A DNA stretch of 44,665 bases from a plasmid. The notes under the pieces are model-generated. The model did not search any database, was not told the DNA's origin, and was given only the letters and a program-made list of their open reading frames with translations. This document shows positions 8,840-39,714 of this stretch, piece after piece; position 1 is the stretch's first letter; each line of letters begins with the position of its first letter. The DNA is taken from sequence record NZ_CP102715.1. One strand, 5' to 3'. Both the position numbers and the translations under genes were made by a program.

Positions 8840-9175
8840 ATGAAGTTCAGCAAAGTAAAAGCGTTAGCAACAACTGGAGCTACTGCGATTTACTTGGGCC
8901 TGATGAATACTCAGGTTGTTTTGGCAGCGGACGGTGGTGAAGTTCAAAGCAAACTAACTCAAGCTGGTAAGACGATTCAAGGTATTTTAACTGGCTTGGT
9001 CGTTTTAGTTGGGATTTGTGTCGCACTATTTATTATTATCAAAAGAATGCCTGACGCAGACGATCCGCGAGAGAAATCCGAAGTTTATCACGCAGTTGGT
9101 CGGGTAGCTGGTTTAGTGGCCCTAGCGGCAGCGGTTATCTGGCTATTGCCTTGGGTCTACAGCCTATTCACTTAA
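8840..9175 (+). CDS. Small T4SS membrane protein (signal peptide plus 2 TM; TrsC/VirB2-like topology)
   Basis: Start MKFSKVKALATTGATAIYLGLMNTQVVLAADGG.. with AGGAGGAATAAC RBS. Two hydrophobic helices. Confidence 0.5.
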   Translation: MKFSKVKALATTGATAIYLGLMNTQVVLAADGGEVQSKLTQAGKTIQGILTGLVVLVGICVALFIIIKRMPDADDPREKSEVYHAVGRVAGLVALAAAVIWLLPWVYSLFT

Positions 9176-15769: not shown

Positions 15770-16240
15770 ATGAAAGACAAATTATTAAACAGCATTAAAG
15801 CTAGTTGGCCGTATTTACTAACACTAATCATTGGCTTGTATTTAGCGGAGATTTTAGCTGGCGCTGTCATGGCCTTGTCCCGTTATAAGCTAACCTTTGC
15901 GGATCATATGCCAACCGTATTAAAACAATTAGCTTTACACCCTTGGCACTATTACAACTTGTATTTGGGCCAAAAGAACCCAGTACTAATTATTGTCAGT
16001 GTCGCCGTGGTCCTATACACCATCTATTTTGCCTTGAAACGAAATAGCAAACATAAATCGTGGGAAACTGCGGACACTGAAACCCACGGAAGTGCGACCT
16101 GGGGCAATCTAAAAGAATTGAGCGACCATTACTTTAGTATCACTGCTAAAGACCTCACCACAGCGTTTAACAGGAGCACTACAACAGAAATATTAGAGGC
16201 ATTAACAAAACAAGAAACACAATCCAAGACAGACAAGTGA
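15770..16240 (+). CDS. N-terminal membrane domain of the type IV coupling protein, encoded separately
   Basis: Two TM helices followed by ETHGSATWGNLKEL, the HGSArW motif that follows the TM region in VirD4/TraG-family T4CPs. Confidence 0.5.
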   Translation: MKDKLLNSIKASWPYLLTLIIGLYLAEILAGAVMALSRYKLTFADHMPTVLKQLALHPWHYYNLYLGQKNPVLIIVSVAVVLYTIYFALKRNSKHKSWETADTETHGSATWGNLKELSDHYFSITAKDLTTAFNRSTTTEILEALTKQETQSKTDK

Positions 16241-22188: not shown

Positions 22189-23313
22189 ATGCCAAGTAAA
22201 GTTGAAACTGAAAAATGGAAAAGGCAGCTTGTCGAAAATGCCGAAAAAGAAATTTTAAAACTAACTGATAGTGAAAAATTTAAAAGTTATCTTAATACCG
22301 TAGCAAAGTTTCACCGGTATAGCCAACGTAATATTGACCTTATCTATTCTCAAAATCCAAGTGCCAGCCAAGTTGCAGGCTTTAAAAAATGGCAGAATGA
22401 TTTTAAACGATCAGTAAATAAAGGAGAAAAAGGGATCAGGATTGCGGCCCCTATTATTAAAAAACTAACGCCAGAGGATCAGAAAAGGCTTGATACGACC
22501 GAAGAAAAAGCCATAGTTGGTTATCGCTATATTCCAGTATTTGACATATCACAGACAAGCGGCGAACCAGTCCTAAGTGCTAAGGATTTTGTCAAAGAAA
22601 ATTTAGCCGATCATCAGAATGTAACGAGCTTGTATAACGCGTTCAAAGATTATTTAAACCAACAAACCGATCTTCAAGTCAGTGAAGTGCCTTTAGCAAC
22701 GCTAAATGGGGCTAAGGGGTATTTTCAACCCAGCACTAATGAAATCGTCATTGGTGGCGATGAGTCCGACAATGCTTTGAAACTAAAAACGTTATATCAC
22801 GAATATGCACATAGTCAGTTACATGGGTTAAAATCAGCCTTTAAAGATCGGCCACGAGCCTATCAAGAAACGCAAGCCGAAGCGGTCGCATATGTTGCCA
22901 TGCAAAATATTGGCGTTGATACAGGCAATTACTCCCTCGGTTATGTGGCTACCTGGGCGAAAGATAAAGCCGTGATCCATAGCGCTTTAAGTGAAATTCA
23001 GCAGGTTAGTAACAAGGTGATTGAGCTTAGTGACGGGTTAACCAAACAATTAGGCTTACAAGAAGCCCAAAAAGAGCCTGAGCATGATCTAAAAAAGCTA
23101 TCAGCCCATGATCTTAATAAGTCCTATCAAGGCTTGCAACAACAAGTTCAGCAAGCAAGGAACCCACAACAAAAATCAGAACTACAAAATAAATTAAATA
23201 ATGTACACCATGAAATCAGTAAGCGAACACAAAAACAGCTGCAAGCATTTGCTGAACAGAATCCGGAAATCAAACAACCCGAATCCGAACTTGATCAAAG
23301 TTTAAAGCGTTAG
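22189..23313 (+). CDS. ArdC-like antirestriction / ssDNA-binding protein (ArdC-N/DUF1738 plus zincin-like HExxH domain; LtrC-like)
   Basis: FHRYSQRNIDLIYSQNPSASQVAGFKKWQNDFKRSVNKGEKGIRIAAP matches the ArdC-N signature. A downstream HEYAH motif is present. Confidence 0.7.
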   Translation: MPSKVETEKWKRQLVENAEKEILKLTDSEKFKSYLNTVAKFHRYSQRNIDLIYSQNPSASQVAGFKKWQNDFKRSVNKGEKGIRIAAPIIKKLTPEDQKRLDTTEEKAIVGYRYIPVFDISQTSGEPVLSAKDFVKENLADHQNVTSLYNAFKDYLNQQTDLQVSEVPLATLNGAKGYFQPSTNEIVIGGDESDNALKLKTLYHEYAHSQLHGLKSAFKDRPRAYQETQAEAVAYVAMQNIGVDTGNYSLGYVATWAKDKAVIHSALSEIQQVSNKVIELSDGLTKQLGLQEAQKEPEHDLKKLSAHDLNKSYQGLQQQVQQARNPQQKSELQNKLNNVHHEISKRTQKQLQAFAEQNPEIKQPESELDQSLKR

Positions 23314-23341
23314 CCAGATTTTAAAGGTCATGCTATAATAT

Positions 23342-23470
23342 AAACAGAAAAAGGAAGTCCCGCCGAAAACAGGACTTCCCGTGCAAGCCGCTTCAAAGGC
23401 GGTGGCATTAACATTAGACTAAATACTAGTCGTCCTGTAACCTGCCAAAGTTACACAGGGCGGCTTTTTT
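23342..23470 (+). ncRNA. Candidate small structured RNA (type I antitoxin-like), copy A. Runs from an extended -10 promoter (TGCTATAAT at 23326-23334) to a bidirectional terminator.
   Basis: Perfect 8-bp hairpin GGAAGTCC..GGACTTCC. Second hairpin CCGC..GCGG. Terminal stem plus GGCTTTTTTATTT. Convergent with the peptide ORF at 23469-23558. Confidence 0.35.
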
Positions 23471-23558
23471 ATTTGTGGTGCTTGTCGATATAGCTGAGGA
23501 GCGCGATTAAAAACGTGCCAAACAGCAACATCAACGAGAGTGTCTGGAAGACGCTCAT
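23469..23558 (-). CDS. Fst/Ldr-like type I toxin peptide (29 aa), copy A
   Basis: Minus-strand ORF ATGAGCGTCTTCCAG..AAATAA encodes MSVFQTLSLMLLFGTFLIALLSYIDKHHK (TM helix plus charged tail). GGAAGG RBS-like motif lies upstream. Extended -10 TGTATAAT on the minus strand near 23657-23664. Confidence 0.45.
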   Translation of the reverse strand: MSVFQTLSLMLLFGTFLIALLSYIDKHHK

Positions 23559-24024
23559 TGACTGTGAAACCTTCCTGAAGATTATTCCATGGTCCCATGG
23601 GCCTCACCTCACAAGGGAAAAGACAGCCACTGCCCTTAAACCTTCTTGCTCAATCCATTATACAGGGAAATTAAAAATCAACCAAGAACAATAAAACTGC
23701 TCTTGACAGCAAAGGAAAGCTACAACCCTAGCAAGGTCAGCAAGCAAGGCTAATAATACTGCTGCAATGGGAAATAACAAGTGTCCAGTAGGGCGGTCCA
23801 AGAGCGGGCACAAATCCTACCAGACAGTACGATTATAAAAGTAAAGAAGGTCATAAAATCAGCTACTAGAGGGAAAACTGTGGTAAAAGACAAATAAGAT
23901 GGTGAAATGATGACTATAAAGCCAAGTCAGATAAACAGGTGATTGAGCATACAAATTGCTTTTGACACTTTACTTACTTATAATAAGTACAATAATAAAT
24001 GACTAGTAAAAGGCGGGTAAAACA

Positions 24025-27846: not shown

Positions 27847-30747
27847 TCAAATAGTAAATCTATTTATAACTACTAAACCCAAGCTTAGCAATAACGTCAC
27901 TAGTCCAATTAACATCATACCCATTGATGATTCATTACCTGTTTGAGGTAATTTACCTGTTTTTTCGTAGGTTTTACCTTGAGTGTAAGCCTTTGGTGTT
28001 ACCTTATTCCCATTATTAGGAACTTGAGGCTTCTTAGGCGTTGTCGGGTTATTAGGAACCTGGGGCTTCTTAGGTGTTGTCGGATTATGGGTATTAGTAA
28101 TATTGTAACCATCAACAGTACTGGTGTACCCGGCAACTGCATCTTCCGTTACCGTGTAGGTGATCTTCTGACCATTAGCGTAAGCAGCTAAGTTGTCGAA
28201 ACTGTATTGCCAGTTATCACTAGCACTAACCGTCTTACTTGCGACTTGTTGACCATTGGCCAATAAGTTCACGGTGATTGAACTTGGGCGGATTCCATCT
28301 TGATTGTTGTTATCGTTCCAAGTCTTGGTTCCAGATACCTTGACGGTGGCAGGAGTGTGGTTGTTAGTTACGTTGTAACCATCAACAGTACTTGTGTACC
28401 CAGCAACTGCATCTTCCGTTACCGTGTAGGTGATCTTCTGACCATTAGCGTAAGCAGCTAAGTTGTCGAAACTGTATTGCCAGTTATCACTAGCACTAAC
28501 CGTCTTACTTGCGACTTGTTGACCATTGGCCAATAAGTTCACGGTGATTGAACTTGGGCGGATTCCATCTTGATTGTTGTTATCGTTCCAAGTCTTGGTT
28601 CCAGATACCTTGACGGTGGCAGGAGTGTGGTTGTTAGTTACGTTGTAACCATCAACAGTACTTGTGTACCCAGCAACTGCATCTTCCGTTACCGTGTAGG
28701 TGATCTTCTGACCATTAGCGTAAGCAGCTAAGTTGTCGAAACTGTATTGCCAGTTATCACTAGCACTAACCGTCTTACTTGCGACTTGTTGACCATTGGC
28801 CAATAAGTTCACGGTGATTGAACTTGGGCGGATTCCATCTTGATTGTTGTTATCGTTCCAAGTCTTGGTTCCAGATACCTTGACGGTGGCAGGAGTGTGG
28901 TTGTTAGTTACGTTGTAACCATCAACAGTACTTGTGTACCCAGCAACTGCATCTTCCGTTACTGTGTAGGTAATCTTCTTATCATTTTCAAATTCAGGTA
29001 AGTTAGTGAAGCTGTACTTCCAGTTGTCTGATGCCTTCACTGTCTTACTCTGAACAACCTTACCATTAGCTAATAAGTTAACCTTGATTGAATCAGGGCG
29101 CTTGCCGTCTTGATCATCATTATCTTTCCAAGTCTTTGTACCTGAAACGGTAGTAACAGCTTTCTTATCTGTGATCGTTGCTGTTGCTCCCTTAGAGTCA
29201 AAACTATCAGCTGAAACAGTAACATCTTTAGCCAATGTATATCCCGATGGAGCCGAAGTTTCACGTATAATATAATCATCTTTTAGAAGACCATAAATTG
29301 TTCCTTTACCATCAGGACCAGTAGTTATGGTTCCAACAACCCCATTAGTTGACTTGCGAATAACAGAAAAAACAGCATTTGCAAGTGGGGCTCCAGATTC
29401 ATCCTCTTTATTTATAGTTAAACTATAATTATATCCATTAGCTTTGCCATTAGCCTCTTGGTAAAGAACTCTATTTATAGAACTGTTTATTACCTTCTTA
29501 TTAGATTTATAGCTAACATCATTCTCGACCAGTTCGCCATTAAGTAATGGATGGTTTGACTTAACCCGGTAGACAATTGCATAACCCTCAGATATATTGC
29601 CCAATTTCACTGTATAAGCACTATTGCTTGAATTAATATCAATGTTATATTGGCTTGTCACATCTTGTGGATTGCTCAATGTCCAATAGTTCTCAGAATT
29701 TCTTTCCCAATTCCCTTTAGAAATAGAAAAACTTCCGGGCACATAAGAAAAACCATCTGAAGCCAAACTATCAGAGATAACTACATTACTGACACTTTGC
29801 ATAGAGGCGTTAATGTTGACGTGATAGATAATTTCATTCTTGTTATTGTCATAATCAACATATCCGTACTTCCAAAAGTCTGTTGCTGTATCACCCTTGG
29901 AAGGTATGTGTTTTATACCAGATCTATCAATCGTAACGGTGTGCCCATTAATCTTGATTTCCGCTGGTATGGTCTCTTCTTTATTGATTTCACTTGTAGC
30001 GGCCGTTACTTGCATATCAATATGGCCACTTATTGAGTCATGTGAATCAACGTAATCGGTGTAGGTTAGAACAAGTGATTTGCTGGGCTTATCGATAACT
30101 GCTGTAGCTACAACAGTTTTGCCATCAGGTGCATAAATATTAAACTTCTGAGATCGTTGGAAATCTAACTGATCCGGTAATGAAATAGTTGTTGTATCCC
30201 CAGATTTGGCTGAATCTGGAACTGAGAAATCAAAAGAGAATTCTGTAGTTCCTCCACCTGAGATCTCCTTAGTTGATGATCTCTGATTGGTAATTGTAAT
30301 ATCAACGCTAGTTCCTTTATTATATGCAGATGGGGAACTATTATTCTTAGAAATACTATTAACTGATGGACCCTGATTAGTATTAGCCCCACTATTAGAA
30401 GTCGAGTATTGACTATTACTTATATAATTACGGTCCTCCTGAACTGGCTGATTATTGTCAGTTGGTGCTCTCGGTTGTGCTTCTGTATTAGTAACTTGTT
30501 TCTGAGACGTCTGATCGTCCGAAGAACTAGTATTATCTGTGGTATTACTATTAACGGTACTTATCTGCGGTTCTTCCTGTTGATTAATAACAGTCCCGGA
30601 CCCCGTACCGTTCTGAGTAATATTTGTCTTGCTATCAGCATATACGGTCATACCATTATTAGATGATATCCATATTGACCCTAATAACGAAAATAAGACT
30701 AGTCCCATCATAAATAAAAGTCGACGATGCCTAGATTTATTACTCAT
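27847..30747 (-). CDS. LPxTG-anchored surface adhesin with four tandem CnaB-type (isopeptide/B-repeat) domains
   Basis: Signal peptide (MSNKSRHRRLLFMMGLVLFSLLG; GAAGGAGG RBS before ATG 30747). S/T/N-rich stalk. 4x 90-aa repeats. C-terminal LPQTG plus TM plus basic tail. Confidence 0.85.
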   Translation of the reverse strand: MSNKSRHRRLLFMMGLVLFSLLGSIWISSNNGMTVYADSKTNITQNGTGSGTVINQQEEPQISTVNSNTTDNTSSSDDQTSQKQVTNTEAQPRAPTDNNQPVQEDRNYISNSQYSTSNSGANTNQGPSVNSISKNNSSPSAYNKGTSVDITITNQRSSTKEISGGGTTEFSFDFSVPDSAKSGDTTTISLPDQLDFQRSQKFNIYAPDGKTVVATAVIDKPSKSLVLTYTDYVDSHDSISGHIDMQVTAATSEINKEETIPAEIKINGHTVTIDRSGIKHIPSKGDTATDFWKYGYVDYDNNKNEIIYHVNINASMQSVSNVVISDSLASDGFSYVPGSFSISKGNWERNSENYWTLSNPQDVTSQYNIDINSSNSAYTVKLGNISEGYAIVYRVKSNHPLLNGELVENDVSYKSNKKVINSSINRVLYQEANGKANGYNYSLTINKEDESGAPLANAVFSVIRKSTNGVVGTITTGPDGKGTIYGLLKDDYIIRETSAPSGYTLAKDVTVSADSFDSKGATATITDKKAVTTVSGTKTWKDNDDQDGKRPDSIKVNLLANGKVVQSKTVKASDNWKYSFTNLPEFENDKKITYTVTEDAVAGYTSTVDGYNVTNNHTPATVKVSGTKTWNDNNNQDGIRPSSITVNLLANGQQVASKTVSASDNWQYSFDNLAAYANGQKITYTVTEDAVAGYTSTVDGYNVTNNHTPATVKVSGTKTWNDNNNQDGIRPSSITVNLLANGQQVASKTVSASDNWQYSFDNLAAYANGQKITYTVTEDAVAGYTSTVDGYNVTNNHTPATVKVSGTKTWNDNNNQDGIRPSSITVNLLANGQQVASKTVSASDNWQYSFDNLAAYANGQKITYTVTEDAVAGYTSTVDGYNITNTHNPTTPKKPQVPNNPTTPKKPQVPNNGNKVTPKAYTQGKTYEKTGKLPQTGNESSMGMMLIGLVTLLLSLGLVVINRFTI
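28060..29140. repeat. Four 270-bp tandem repeats (three near-identical, one diverged) inside the adhesin gene
   Basis: accgtgtaggtgatcttctg recurs at 28151, 28421 and 28691, and diverged at 28961. Exact 270-bp period. Confidence 0.85.
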
Positions 30748-30961
30748 ACTGTTGCCTCCTTCTTTGTTTTCTATGCGCAATACTAAAGATTATCACATAC
30801 CCTTATATTACCATATTCTTATAGGAAATTTCACACTAACTTCACCAACCGTCAACAGTGATATCACTAGTGTTAGCGTAGCTATCAAACGTATGTTTCC
30901 TTAAGCTGCTAGGAAGCTGATTAAAAATAGTCGAAAATCAGTTATAGTCATGCTATAATAT

Positions 30962-31095
30962 AGACAGAAAAAGGGAAGCCCTGCTAGAACAGGACTTCCC
31001 ATGCAAGCCGCTTCAAAGGCGGTGGCAGAAATTTAATAAACGATTTTAGCTCGTCCTGTGATCTCTACCAAAGTTACACAGGGCGGCTTTTTTAT
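30962..31095 (+). ncRNA. Candidate small structured RNA (type I antitoxin-like), copy B
   Basis: Same promoter (TGCTATAAT), hairpins and terminator as copy A, with substitutions that largely preserve the first stem (GGGAAGCCCTG..CAGGACTTCCC). Confidence 0.35.
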
Positions 31096-31181
31096 TTGTG
31101 GTGCTTGTCGATATAGCTGAGGAGCGCGATTAAAAACGTGCCAAACAGCAACATCAACGAGAGTGTCTGGAAGACGCTCAT
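31092..31181 (-). CDS. Fst/Ldr-like type I toxin peptide (29 aa), copy B
   Basis: Identical ORF to 23469-23558, within the 346-bp direct repeat. Confidence 0.45.
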   Translation of the reverse strand: MSVFQTLSLMLLFGTFLIALLSYIDKHHK

Positions 31182-31358
31182 TGACTGTGAAACCTTCCTG
31201 AAGATTATTCCATGGTCCCATGGGCCTCACCTCACAAGGGAAAAGACAGCCATCGCCCTTAAAACTTCTTGCTTAATCTATTATACAGGTAATTTACTGT
31301 ATGACCAAGCGCTCAACAACTATTAGAGTAATTATCAATGATGGAGGGGATTTTTTAA

Positions 31359-32006: not shown

Positions 32007-32612
32007 ATGGCTAAAATCGGTTATGCGCGTGTGAGTTCCAAGGAGCAACATTTAGATCGACAGTTAGCGGCTTTAAAAGACGTCGATAAATTATTTACGG
32101 ATAAATTAAGTGGGGCTAACACTAATCGGCCAGAACTGCAAAAAATGCTGGCCTATATTCGTGAGGGTGATATTGTCCTGGTTACTGAATTAGATCGCTT
32201 AGGCAGAAACAACCAGGATTTAACTAAGATCATGAACACCATTCAAAATAAGGGTGCTACCCTAGATGTGTTAAATTTGCCGTCCATGACAGGGATTGCT
32301 GACTCAAATTTACGTCAACTGATGACCAACTTGATTATTGAACTCTATAAGTATCAGGCCGAAAGTGAACGTAAACGAATCATTGAGCGCCAGCAGCAAG
32401 GGATTGCCTTAGCTAAGCAGCAGGGCAAATATCATGGACGCAAACCCCAATATGCCAAAGATGATCCCCGCTTGCAACATGCTTTTAAACTTTATCAGGC
32501 GGGCATGAGTGATGTAGATGTGGCTCGTAATACCGGGATTAAGCGAACAACTTTTATTCGATATCGTAAAAAATACGGGATCAGGGGAAACAGGGAACGC
32601 CCTTTCAGTTAG
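32007..32612 (+). CDS. Serine recombinase, resolvase family (full length)
   Basis: MAKIGYARVSSKEQHLDRQ catalytic-Ser N-terminus. C-terminal HTH. 201 aa. Confidence 0.9.
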   Translation: MAKIGYARVSSKEQHLDRQLAALKDVDKLFTDKLSGANTNRPELQKMLAYIREGDIVLVTELDRLGRNNQDLTKIMNTIQNKGATLDVLNLPSMTGIADSNLRQLMTNLIIELYKYQAESERKRIIERQQQGIALAKQQGKYHGRKPQYAKDDPRLQHAFKLYQAGMSDVDVARNTGIKRTTFIRYRKKYGIRGNRERPFS

Positions 32613-36473: not shown

Positions 36474-36640
36474 TGCCCTGGCTAAACAACAAGGCAAATA
36501 TCATGGTCGGAAGCCTCAATATGCCAAAGATGATCCCCGGTTGCAACATGCTTTTAAACTTTATCAGGCGGGCATGAGTGATGTAGATGTGGCTCGTAAT
36601 ACCGGGATTAAGCGGACGACCTTTATCATGATGGGAATTA
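36474..36640 (+). pseudogene. Resolvase 3' fragment
   Basis: LAKQQGKYHGRKPQYAKDDPRLQHAFKLYQAGMSDVDVARNTGIKRTTFI.. This matches 32007-32612 residues ~135-190, then diverges or is deleted. Confidence 0.6.
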
Positions 36641-36730
36641 AGTTAGAGTGATATCATTTATTAATCAGAATGCAAACAACTGTGCTTCTTACCATGGTTT
36701 TTTAGGAATAGCGGTTTTACTAATTGTTGA
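36631..36730. repeat. ~100-bp direct repeat (copy 1), also found at 39790-39889
   Basis: atgatgggaatYaWgttagagtgRtatcatttattaatYRgaatgcaaacaactgtgcttcttaccatRgttttttaggaatagcggttttactaattg is shared. It is downstream of a resolvase fragment in both copies. Confidence 0.8.
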
Positions 36731-39325: not shown

Positions 39326-39714
39326 ACAGAAACAATCAGGATTTAACTAAGATTATGAACACCATTCAAAATAAGGGTGCCACCCTAGATGTGTTGAATT
39401 TACCGTCCATGACAGGGATTGCTGACCCTAACTTGCGTCAACTGATGACCAACTTGATTATTGAACTCTATAAGTATCAGGCCGAAAGTGAACGTAAGCG
39501 AATTATTGAGCGCCAGCAGCAAGGGATTGCCTTAGCTAAGCGACAGGGTAAATATCATGGACGCAAACCCCAATACACCCAAGACGATCCCCACTTGCAA
39601 CATGCTTTTAAGCTCTATCAAGGTGGTATGAGTGATGTCGATGTTGCCCGTAATACCGGCATTAAACGGACGACCTTTATCAGGTATCGCAAAAAGTTTA
39701 ATATAAAAAGATGA
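39325..39714 (+). pseudogene. Resolvase gene lacking the 5' catalytic region
   Basis: Homology to 32007-32612 begins mid-gene (..RNNQDLTKIMNTIQNKGATLDVLNL..) with no catalytic Ser region. Ends QGGMSDVDVARNTGIKRTTFIRYRKKFNIKR*. Confidence 0.65.

Follow-up and report, generated by a model that had tools for sequence, protein, structure and literature searches.

Type I toxin-antitoxin systems of Bacillus in which toxin and antitoxin RNAs overlap at their 3' ends, namely txpA/RatA, bsrG/SR4 and bsrE/SR5, do so over 100-140 bp (PMC6562991). Toxins of the TxpA family are also known in Lactobacillus casei ATCC 334 (four matches), Leuconostoc and Enterococcus faecalis, and one of them, EF3263 of E. 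faecalis, has been validated together with an antisense RNA of ~110 nt that lies over its 3' untranslated region (UTR) (Fozo et al. 2010, PMC2887945). Plasmids of Lacticaseibacillus carry Lpt/RNAII, in which a 29-amino-acid Fst-like type I toxin is paired with a convergent antitoxin RNA (Folli et al. 2017). Here we describe a unit of ~350 bp that is present twice in a 44,665-nucleotide stretch of plasmid DNA (sequence record NZ_CP102715.1), hereafter called the window. Each unit is very probably a TxpA/RatA-class (BsrE-like, Hol_Tox) type I toxin-antitoxin module on a conjugative Lactobacillaceae plasmid, working by the mechanism proposed below. The initial annotation of the window had recognized a plasmid-borne type I toxin-antitoxin system with a small membrane peptide and a convergent antisense small RNA (sRNA), and this class held up; its assignment to the par/Fst family did not, as the peptide belongs to Hol_Tox and not to Fst_toxin, the sRNA is RatA, the terminators are separate and the sRNA lacks complementarity to the toxin 5' region.

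On the minus strand of copy 1, an open reading frame (ORF) at positions 23469-23558 encodes the 29-amino-acid peptide MSVFQTLSLMLLFGTFLIALLSYIDKHHK, which matches the Pfam family Hol_Tox (PF16935) over residues 1-27 with 50.3 bits against a cut-off of 23.3 (E = 2e-13). The ORF of copy 2 (31092-31181, minus strand) is identical at the DNA level from end to end and specifies the same peptide, as had been annotated. Searching the peptide against Pfam for the expected Fst toxin gave no Fst_toxin match even at E ≤ 10, and Hol_Tox was obtained instead. The sequence that we take to be TxpA was also placed in Hol_Tox by this search, and a control with the presumed Fst sequence gave no Hol_Tox match and 22.8 bits for Fst_toxin, itself below the cut-off of 36. 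The InterPro entry that matches ComI, a plasmid-encoded peptide of the same Pfam family, is the "small toxic BsrE-like" family, whose characterized members are type I toxins (ComI preprint). Other identities for the peptide were considered and rejected: PepG1/SprG1 (NCBIfam NF041589) scored 25.2 bits against a cut-off of 70, a genuine phage holin would not fit a neighborhood in which lysis genes are not present, and the Lpt core AIIAPLLVGVFLLL (as quoted in PMC11352940) is absent from MSVFQTLSLMLLFGTFLIALLSYIDKHHK.

The RNA evidence points to the same class. When the whole window was scanned with Rfam at gathering thresholds, exactly two matches were returned, both to RatA (RF01776) and both on the plus strand, opposite the toxin in each copy. 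The match in copy 1 (23336-23425) scored 54.4 bits and that in copy 2 (30956-31047) scored 62.9 bits, against a gathering score of 49, and each covered model positions 1-91 of 91. RatA alone stood above threshold, and the Rfam families of par/Fst antitoxins, which the par/Fst assignment would lead one to expect, gave no match even at E ≤ 10. With predicted ends, the RatA-like sRNA occupies ~126 nt in copy 1 (23346-23471, plus strand) and positions 30966-31094 (plus strand) in copy 2. The predicted fold of this sRNA, taken as ~129-132 nt, consists of hairpin 1 (23352-23380; 30973-31000 in copy 2), hairpin 2 (23387-23403, with the stem GCCGCUU/AGGCGGU and an invariant loop), a hypervariable single-stranded linker (23409-23427; ~31027-31050 in copy 2) and an intrinsic terminator with U6 (23428-23470), of which the hairpin spans 23428-23465 and the T-run, at 23465-23470, overlaps the toxin stop codon (T-run 31088-31093 in copy 2). 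Fold z-scores of -3.8 for copy 1 and -4.7 for copy 2 bear out the plus-strand RNA of ~130 nt with two 5' hairpins and a hairpin/T-run end that had been annotated, and a covariance model built here from homologues (R1) scores the copy 2 sRNA at 138 bits. The extended -10 promoter proposed for this RNA was likewise confirmed in both copies. In copy 1 (23311-23339, plus strand) it consists of the -35 element TAGCCA, a 17-nt spacer and the extended -10 TGCTATAAT (TATAAT with an upstream TG), matching the consensus at 10 of 12 positions plus the TG; in copy 2 (30931-30959, plus strand) the promoter scan gave TCGAAA, 17 nt and TATAAT, again with TG. The -10 of the sRNA promoter is conserved across homologues.

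Convergent to the sRNA, the toxin promoter of copy 1 was read directly from the sequence (23657-23685, minus strand), with the -35 element TTGGTT (23685->23680), a 17-nt spacer and the -10 element TATAAT (23662->23657); the scan passed it over, its -35 matching the consensus at only three of six positions. For copy 2 the scan reported TGGTCA, a 16-nt spacer and TATAAT (31280-31307, minus strand). Across homologues the toxin -10 is nearly invariant and most carry the -35 CTTGGTY. The extended -10 that had been annotated here is a perfect TATAAT, but its TG abuts this hexamer directly, so that it is not the canonical TGnTATAAT, and the scan reports no TG.

The initial annotation had both transcripts ending at one shared, bidirectional terminator, and this is the part of its architecture that fails. 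In each unit the sole minus-strand intrinsic terminator consists of hairpin 1 in reverse complement with a U-run behind it (23380->23352 in copy 1, followed by TTTTCTGTTT at 23351->23342; 31000->30973 in copy 2, where the terminator scan gives the complement of hairpin 1 and then TTTTTCTGTC), and it lies ~90 nt past the terminator of the sRNA. Selection on the hairpin at the stop codon is confined to the sRNA strand. As judged from these predictions, the two terminators are separate and nested and the toxin mRNA reads through that of the sRNA. Because this read-through extends to hairpin 1, the entire sRNA would be antisense to the toxin 3' UTR. Perfect complementarity between the cognate sRNA and toxin 3' UTR extends over 125 nt (copy 1) or 128 nt (copy 2), and this 3' overlap of 125-128 nt reproduces the organization of txpA/RatA and bsrG/SR4. 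A duplex predicted for the sRNA with the start region and 5' UTR of the toxin did no better than shuffled sequences (z = -0.66 and -0.77).

Homologues were collected with a degenerate back-translated DNA motif of the first 14 peptide residues, which yielded at least 120 loci from Bacilli, Negativicutes and Clostridia; all 127 of the 127 motif matches in the 120 loci listed are peptides with one hydrophobic helix, nearly all of them 23-38 amino acids long and ending in a basic tail. From homologues a covariance model with explicit structure was made and 49 matches were realigned to it, since RNAalifold on a plain MAFFT alignment was muddled by staggered gaps in the hairpin arms. Even Paenibacillus, Bacillus, Virgibacillus and Cohnella have, according to this model, a convergent sRNA located immediately 3' of the ORF. 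Cells of the sRNA alignment are paired in 93% of cases, compared with 73% in shuffles and at most 50% in slid controls, and compensatory changes are present in 28 of the 29 sRNA pairs, including 10 of 10 in hairpin 1 and 6 of 7 in hairpin 2, with UA<->CG exchanges in 11-19 sequences among those in the sRNA terminator. The covariation that one would look for across homologues is thus found, and all three hairpins of the predicted sRNA are conserved and covarying.

The strand on which each hairpin acts can be read from wobble pairs, as a C.A cell on the sRNA strand is a G.U pair on the toxin strand, and a G.U cell on the sRNA strand pairs only there. Hairpin 1 has 52 C.A against 6 G.U cells and points to the toxin strand, hairpin 2 has 3 C.A against 80 G.U and points to the sRNA strand, and the sRNA terminator, with 10 C.A against 63 G.U, points to the sRNA strand only. 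This asymmetry therefore marks hairpin 1 as kept for its role as toxin mRNA terminator and the stop-codon hairpin as the sRNA's own terminator. It also refines the earlier observation that substitutions between the two copies preserve pairing in hairpin 1: on the toxin mRNA strand the positions do pair, but on the sRNA strand each copy has one C.A mismatch, at different positions.

Codon and whole-unit comparisons were made on 29 homologues of the unit with 80-94% identity. Variant codons over the whole 29-amino-acid ORF are synonymous in 14 cases and nonsynonymous in 9, and in codons 15-29, which lie outside the search motif, the counts are 10 and 6. Variable columns fall at codon positions 1, 2 and 3 in the numbers 6, 4 and 11, an excess at the third position, and one leucine codon is found with all four bases there. 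The substitution pattern demonstrates purifying selection on the predicted peptide. Quite the opposite holds for the 62-amino-acid frame, in which the part overlapping the toxin ORF has 0 synonymous and 23 nonsynonymous variant codons. The A-run behind the toxin stop codon varies from 5 to 7 A and shifts the long ORF into unrelated C-termini, and neither the 62- nor the 65-amino-acid ORF has any Pfam or NCBIfam match. On these three grounds the long ORFs are rejected as genes, in agreement with the initial annotation, which had suspected them to be spurious.

In the toxin mRNA, the Shine-Dalgarno sequence AGGAAGG (23570-23576, minus strand) is predicted to be buried in a 5'-UTR stem, where RNAalifold has CCUU and YGAGG pair with the Shine-Dalgarno region. 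A second predicted element joins the two ends of the message: a 5' arm (GCAAGAAGGUUUAAGGGCAGUGGC, 23626-23649, minus strand) pairs with a 3' arm (GCCACCGCCUUUGAAGCGGCUUGC, 23383-23406, minus strand) in the toxin 3' UTR, in the antisense of sRNA hairpin 2. Both the stem and the long-range pairing appear in the single-sequence fold and in the RNAalifold consensus. Columns of the Shine-Dalgarno stem are invariant, so covariation is uninformative there; one long-range pair shows the series C-G, U.G, U-A, and the long-range helices hold 59 G.U against 8 A.C cells, a signature of RNA structure on the toxin strand. Among the matches listed, 93 distant loci were compared, and the 5' UTR of a locus pairs better with the 3' UTR of that same locus than with that of another: scores of at least 10 are reached by 18% of own-locus and 3.9% of other-locus pairs, and p ≤ 0.05 in 26% where 5% would be expected. 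The sequences of the pairing arms in these distant loci are unrelated to each other. Windows in this ungapped-helix test were restricted, as the convergent promoters have palindromic -10 boxes that confounded the result when windows were wide, and a global RNAduplex test of the same pairing was noisy. Taken as a prediction from these folds, the long-range 5'/3' pairing of the toxin mRNA is likely.

Two further observations concern the toxin transcript and its regulation. The minus-strand segment 23488-23671, containing the toxin promoter, the 5' UTR and most of the ORF, gives a full-length but sub-threshold match to the Listeria 'sRNA' rli28 (Rfam RF01492; 37.1 bits, gathering score 45, E = 0.003), which suggests from sequence similarity that rli28 may be a homologous toxin mRNA and not a non-coding RNA. 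At two homologous loci (L088:4019-4415 and L008:4971-5367), unrelated sequence stands in place of the sRNA -10 region and the long-range pairing is degraded, with the toxin ORF intact; such a locus may be decaying or otherwise regulated.

These elements can be combined into a mechanism. The minus strand would give a toxin mRNA of ~310 nt, made up of a 5' UTR of ~90 nt, the 29-amino-acid single-helix membrane peptide and a 3' UTR of ~125 nt. From its strong extended -10, the plus strand would give an sRNA of ~128 nt that lies wholly inside the toxin 3' UTR, its terminator abutting the stop codon. The full-length toxin mRNA is predicted to be untranslated, owing to the stem that buries the Shine-Dalgarno sequence and to pairing of its 5' end with the hairpin-2 antisense segment. 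By analogy with txpA/RatA, bsrG/SR4 and bsrE/SR5, the sRNA would contact the toxin 3' UTR by loops or single-stranded segments, extend into a long duplex and initiate decay by RNase III. Again by analogy, upon loss of the plasmid the short-lived sRNA would disappear first, toxin would be made, the membrane would be damaged and plasmid-free cells would be killed or arrested.

Sequence and comparison show the genes, the promoters, the separate terminators, the perfect antisense overlap, the covarying hairpins and the purifying selection. Several points nevertheless weigh against the module and mechanism proposed here. Transcript ends are predictions, and searchable literature yielded no transcript, toxicity or stability data for the 29-amino-acid peptide. 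The homologues were seeded by a peptide motif, which biases codons 1-14 toward the 29-amino-acid frame, and an alignment fitted to a model leans toward that model's own structure, so that the pairing in the sRNA is somewhat inflated. The structure of the toxin mRNA lies in almost invariant sequence, with 98.5% of cells paired against 97.6% in shuffles, and three homologues (L018, L114 and L088) have the long-range pairing in degraded form. TxpA is not toxic in E. coli, its toxicity being host-dependent (PMC2887945), and ComI, a related plasmid-encoded peptide, kills competent cells only (ComI preprint), so that killing after plasmid loss is something we infer for this locus.

The two units of the window differ chiefly in the linker and the terminator loop, and this difference admits two explanations. 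Their linkers agree at 7 of 22 positions, their ORFs being identical. Across the unit homologues linker entropy amounts to 1.16 bits, with 0 of 22 invariant columns, a variability equal to that of non-homologous flanks, compared with 0.10 bits in the ORF, 0.19 in the 5' UTR and 0.38-0.45 in the hairpin regions. Mean pairwise difference is 0.52 in the linker against 0.11 at third codon positions (about fivefold), and pairs with identical third positions in the ORF still differ by 0.44 on average in the linker. The linkers fall into discrete types that travel with variants of the terminator loop and are shuffled relative to the types of hairpin-1 loop. For co-resident copies elsewhere, stem identity is 0.83-0.87, linker identity 0.43 and terminator-loop identity 0.32, and the perfect complement in non-cognate sRNA/toxin pairs is at most 26 nt. 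A role in specificity is conceivable because the terminator loop is the recognition loop in bsrG/SR4 (PMC6562991).

One tentative reading, which we hold to be possible but would not favor, is that linker and terminator loop form a swappable recognition module under diversifying selection that makes co-resident copies mutually orthogonal, combined with a family-wide lock formed by the two ends of the toxin mRNA. If so, each sRNA would neutralize its own toxin mRNA only, amounting to an incompatibility code for addiction modules, and the toxin mRNA's 5' end would pair with a 3'-UTR site that the hairpin-2 region of the sRNA must invade. Relaxed constraint together with recombination yields the same picture of the linker and is an equal contender; hairpin 2 and both stems are complementary across copies, so that cross-neutralization may still occur. 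The best matches among further multi-copy plasmids share the backbone of the window and would not be independent instances on this point. Variation between neighboring copies is also seen at other loci. At L097:4928-6316 three tandem units all have different linkers, and two of them carry ACG in place of the ATG toxin start with a high-scoring sRNA kept; by sequence these look like a dead toxin with a retained antitoxin. In Cohnella (L028:3084-3909) the copies agree fully (100%) in hairpins 1 and 2, and their linkers and terminators are unrelated.

The peptide itself could serve a different purpose. It might be a ComI-like physiological modulator, permeabilizing the membrane in a particular physiological state or blocking DNA uptake or entry, with the sRNA tuning its level. 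ComI (NF052249, an equivalog) is its best NCBIfam match, and Bacillus ComI-like peptides recovered among the homologues fall in the same Pfam family, Hol_Tox, with ~65% identity to the 29-amino-acid peptide by eye; ComI, too, is plasmid-encoded, its restriction to competent cells and the host-dependent toxicity of TxpA being compatible with such a role. However, the match is 28.7 bits, well under the cut-off of 55, and the peptide, though related, is rejected as a member of this equivalog. The full and conserved type I toxin-antitoxin architecture, the tandem arrays and hundreds of mobile plasmids that fit an addiction or selfish role, and the copies at L097 in which the toxin start is dead and the sRNA kept, as is typical of toxin-antitoxin decay, all speak against it, and we consider a ComI-like modulator unlikely.

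A further alternative concerns the repeat rather than the peptide, namely that the unit chiefly provides direct repeats for gain and loss of cargo by homologous recombination, or is the end of something like an insertion sequence (IS) or miniature inverted-repeat transposable element (MITE), its toxin-antitoxin function being secondary or absent. Self-comparison of the window confirmed the two direct copies of ~346 bp that had been annotated, at coordinates right to within a few bases (overall 23327-23673 and 30947-31296). The two copies are 97% identical in direct orientation between 23442-23673 and 31065-31296 and 89% identical between 23327-23407 and 30947-31027, far above chance, and the non-aligning stretch of ~20-30 nt between these segments falls at the linker. 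Upstream of copy 1 is a conjugation block (VirD4, TrbL, topoisomerase) that ends in an ArdC-N gene; copy 1 is followed by a pyridine-nucleotide-disulphide oxidoreductase, an SMI1/KNR4 protein, a PnuC-like transporter and, on the minus strand, a Cna_B adhesin, then by copy 2, a serine hydrolase and a resolvase. Copy 1 is accordingly situated behind the ArdC-N gene and copy 2 upstream of the adhesin gene, just as had been reported, and the two bracket a cargo block of 7.3 kb. The L. paracasei plasmid plca36 (NC_011352.1) has the same two direct copies (8960-9049 and 16035-16124) around the same oxidoreductase/SMI1/PnuC/Cna_B block, and both of its peptides are WP_021353390.1, identical to that of the window; accordingly, the duplication has been passed on as part of the backbone and is not peculiar to this window.

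Bracketing of the same block in both plasmids, together with the sharp edges of homology and the at least three flank contexts on the sRNA-promoter side among the 29 unit homologues, would suit a role as direct repeats, and for the same reasons it is plausible from the sequence that the unit is a portable cassette at joints between backbone and cargo. However, no terminal inverted repeats common to both copies were found at the unit ends, where inverted matches are weak (71-83%), and no transposase is associated with the unit. The peptide and the RNA structures are selected across very distant taxa, and the site of copy 1, behind ardC, recurs in many species and represents a conserved backbone location. 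An IS or MITE end lacking peptide conservation, which the initial annotation had raised as a caveat, is rejected, as the copies share no terminal inverted repeats and the peptide is conserved in at least 120 loci. A unit that is chiefly a recombination repeat is thus quite improbable. The par/Fst reading, finally, with its shared bidirectional terminator and an antitoxin whose direct repeats would bind the toxin 5' region, deserves hardly any credence: the convergent small transcripts, the short hydrophobic peptide with a charged tail, the plasmid location and the occurrence of a separate Fst-like 29-amino-acid toxin (Lpt) on Lactobacillus plasmids all fit it, but the absence of any Fst_toxin or par/Fst RNA match, the nested terminators, the 5' complementarity at chance level and the unrelated Lpt core AIIAPLLVGVFLLL do not.

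The TxpA/RatA-class module described here is broadly distributed. The unit was found at 744 places in 521 plasmids of PLSDB, 439 of which hold at least 80% of its length, with hosts that include Lactiplantibacillus, Levilactobacillus, Lacticaseibacillus, Pediococcus and other genera, and 93% of the plasmids that bear it are conjugative or mobilizable. The peptide is labeled "putative holin-like toxin" in PLSDB, and the PLSDB gene tables examined contain no annotation of the RatA-like sRNA or of how the transcripts are really arranged. Tandem arrays of two or three toxin/sRNA units are present in distant Firmicutes (L028, a Cohnella, and L007, L039 and L031).

Elsewhere in the window, an 88-nt repeat is present in four places (410-497, 32502-32589, 36571-36658 and 39625-39712) with 63-81% identity and codes for the C-terminal helix-turn-helix of serine recombinase/resolvase genes; domain matches to Resolvase and HTH_7 confirmed this for the ORF at 32007-32612. 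On its right-hand side, the window has the appearance of several cargo modules bounded by resolvases. The ORF of the Cna_B adhesin (27847-30780, minus strand, 977 amino acids) holds four tandem repeats of 270 bp at 28082-29191, which are repeated Cna_B domains.

On Lactobacillaceae plasmids the cassette is common and carries an annotation already; it is an uncharacterized but ordinary addition to the known TxpA/RatA kind. What is gained is better annotation, as hundreds of Lactobacillaceae plasmids label the peptide merely as a putative holin-like toxin, and a complete TxpA/RatA-type module would explain the stability of food, probiotic and gut plasmids with adhesin or metabolic cargo. The analysis also carries the warning that the 62- to 65-amino-acid ORFs should not be called genes, and offers a compact stabilization part of ~350 bp for the engineering of Lactobacillus. 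Two less ordinary leads are the 5'/3' pairing of the toxin mRNA and the hypervariable segment, with its bearing on cross-talk between multiple copies; neither alters the overall picture of a known system.

Compared with described systems, Lpt/RNAII shares the host group of the present module, but its toxin, which has the core AIIAPLLVGVFLLL, belongs to another, Fst-like family, as does par/Fst of pAD1, and there the two RNAs meet by way of complementary direct repeats at the 5' region of the toxin, of which there are none here. ComI of the B. subtilis plasmid pBS32 is also a plasmid-encoded single-helix peptide of ~30 amino acids in the same Pfam and InterPro family, with a very similar N-terminal motif (MS.FQ.L.LML.FG); it differs in the NCBIfam score (28.7, below 55), in its phenotype, which is specific to competent cells, and in that an antisense RNA is unmentioned in the ComI preprint. 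In bsrG/SR4 and bsrE/SR5 the antisense RNA pairs at the 3' end, the terminator loop of the antitoxin is the recognition loop and the Shine-Dalgarno sequence is partly buried (PMC6562991). In the present module the terminator loop and adjoining linker are variable and accessible and the Shine-Dalgarno sequence is predicted to lie in a stem, and by analogy with SR4 the bound sRNA might act on the Shine-Dalgarno sequence from a distance; a match to SR4 or SR5 at the sequence level was not seen in the sRNA. EF3263 has been placed in the TxpA family as a distant member, and its antisense RNA agrees in size and position with what is predicted here. Finally, txpA/RatA of the B. subtilis skin element (RF01776, PF16935, IPR031616) resides in a chromosomal prophage-like element and has a toxin of 59 amino acids and an antitoxin of 222 nt, whereas the present module is plasmid-borne and duplicated, with a 29-amino-acid peptide and an sRNA of ~128 nt predicted to lie wholly inside the toxin 3' UTR. 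Shared by the two are the RatA model, which matches in both copies, the N-terminal motif and Pfam family of the toxin, and a convergent gene order in which the antitoxin lies 3' of the toxin and overlaps it over a long 3' stretch.

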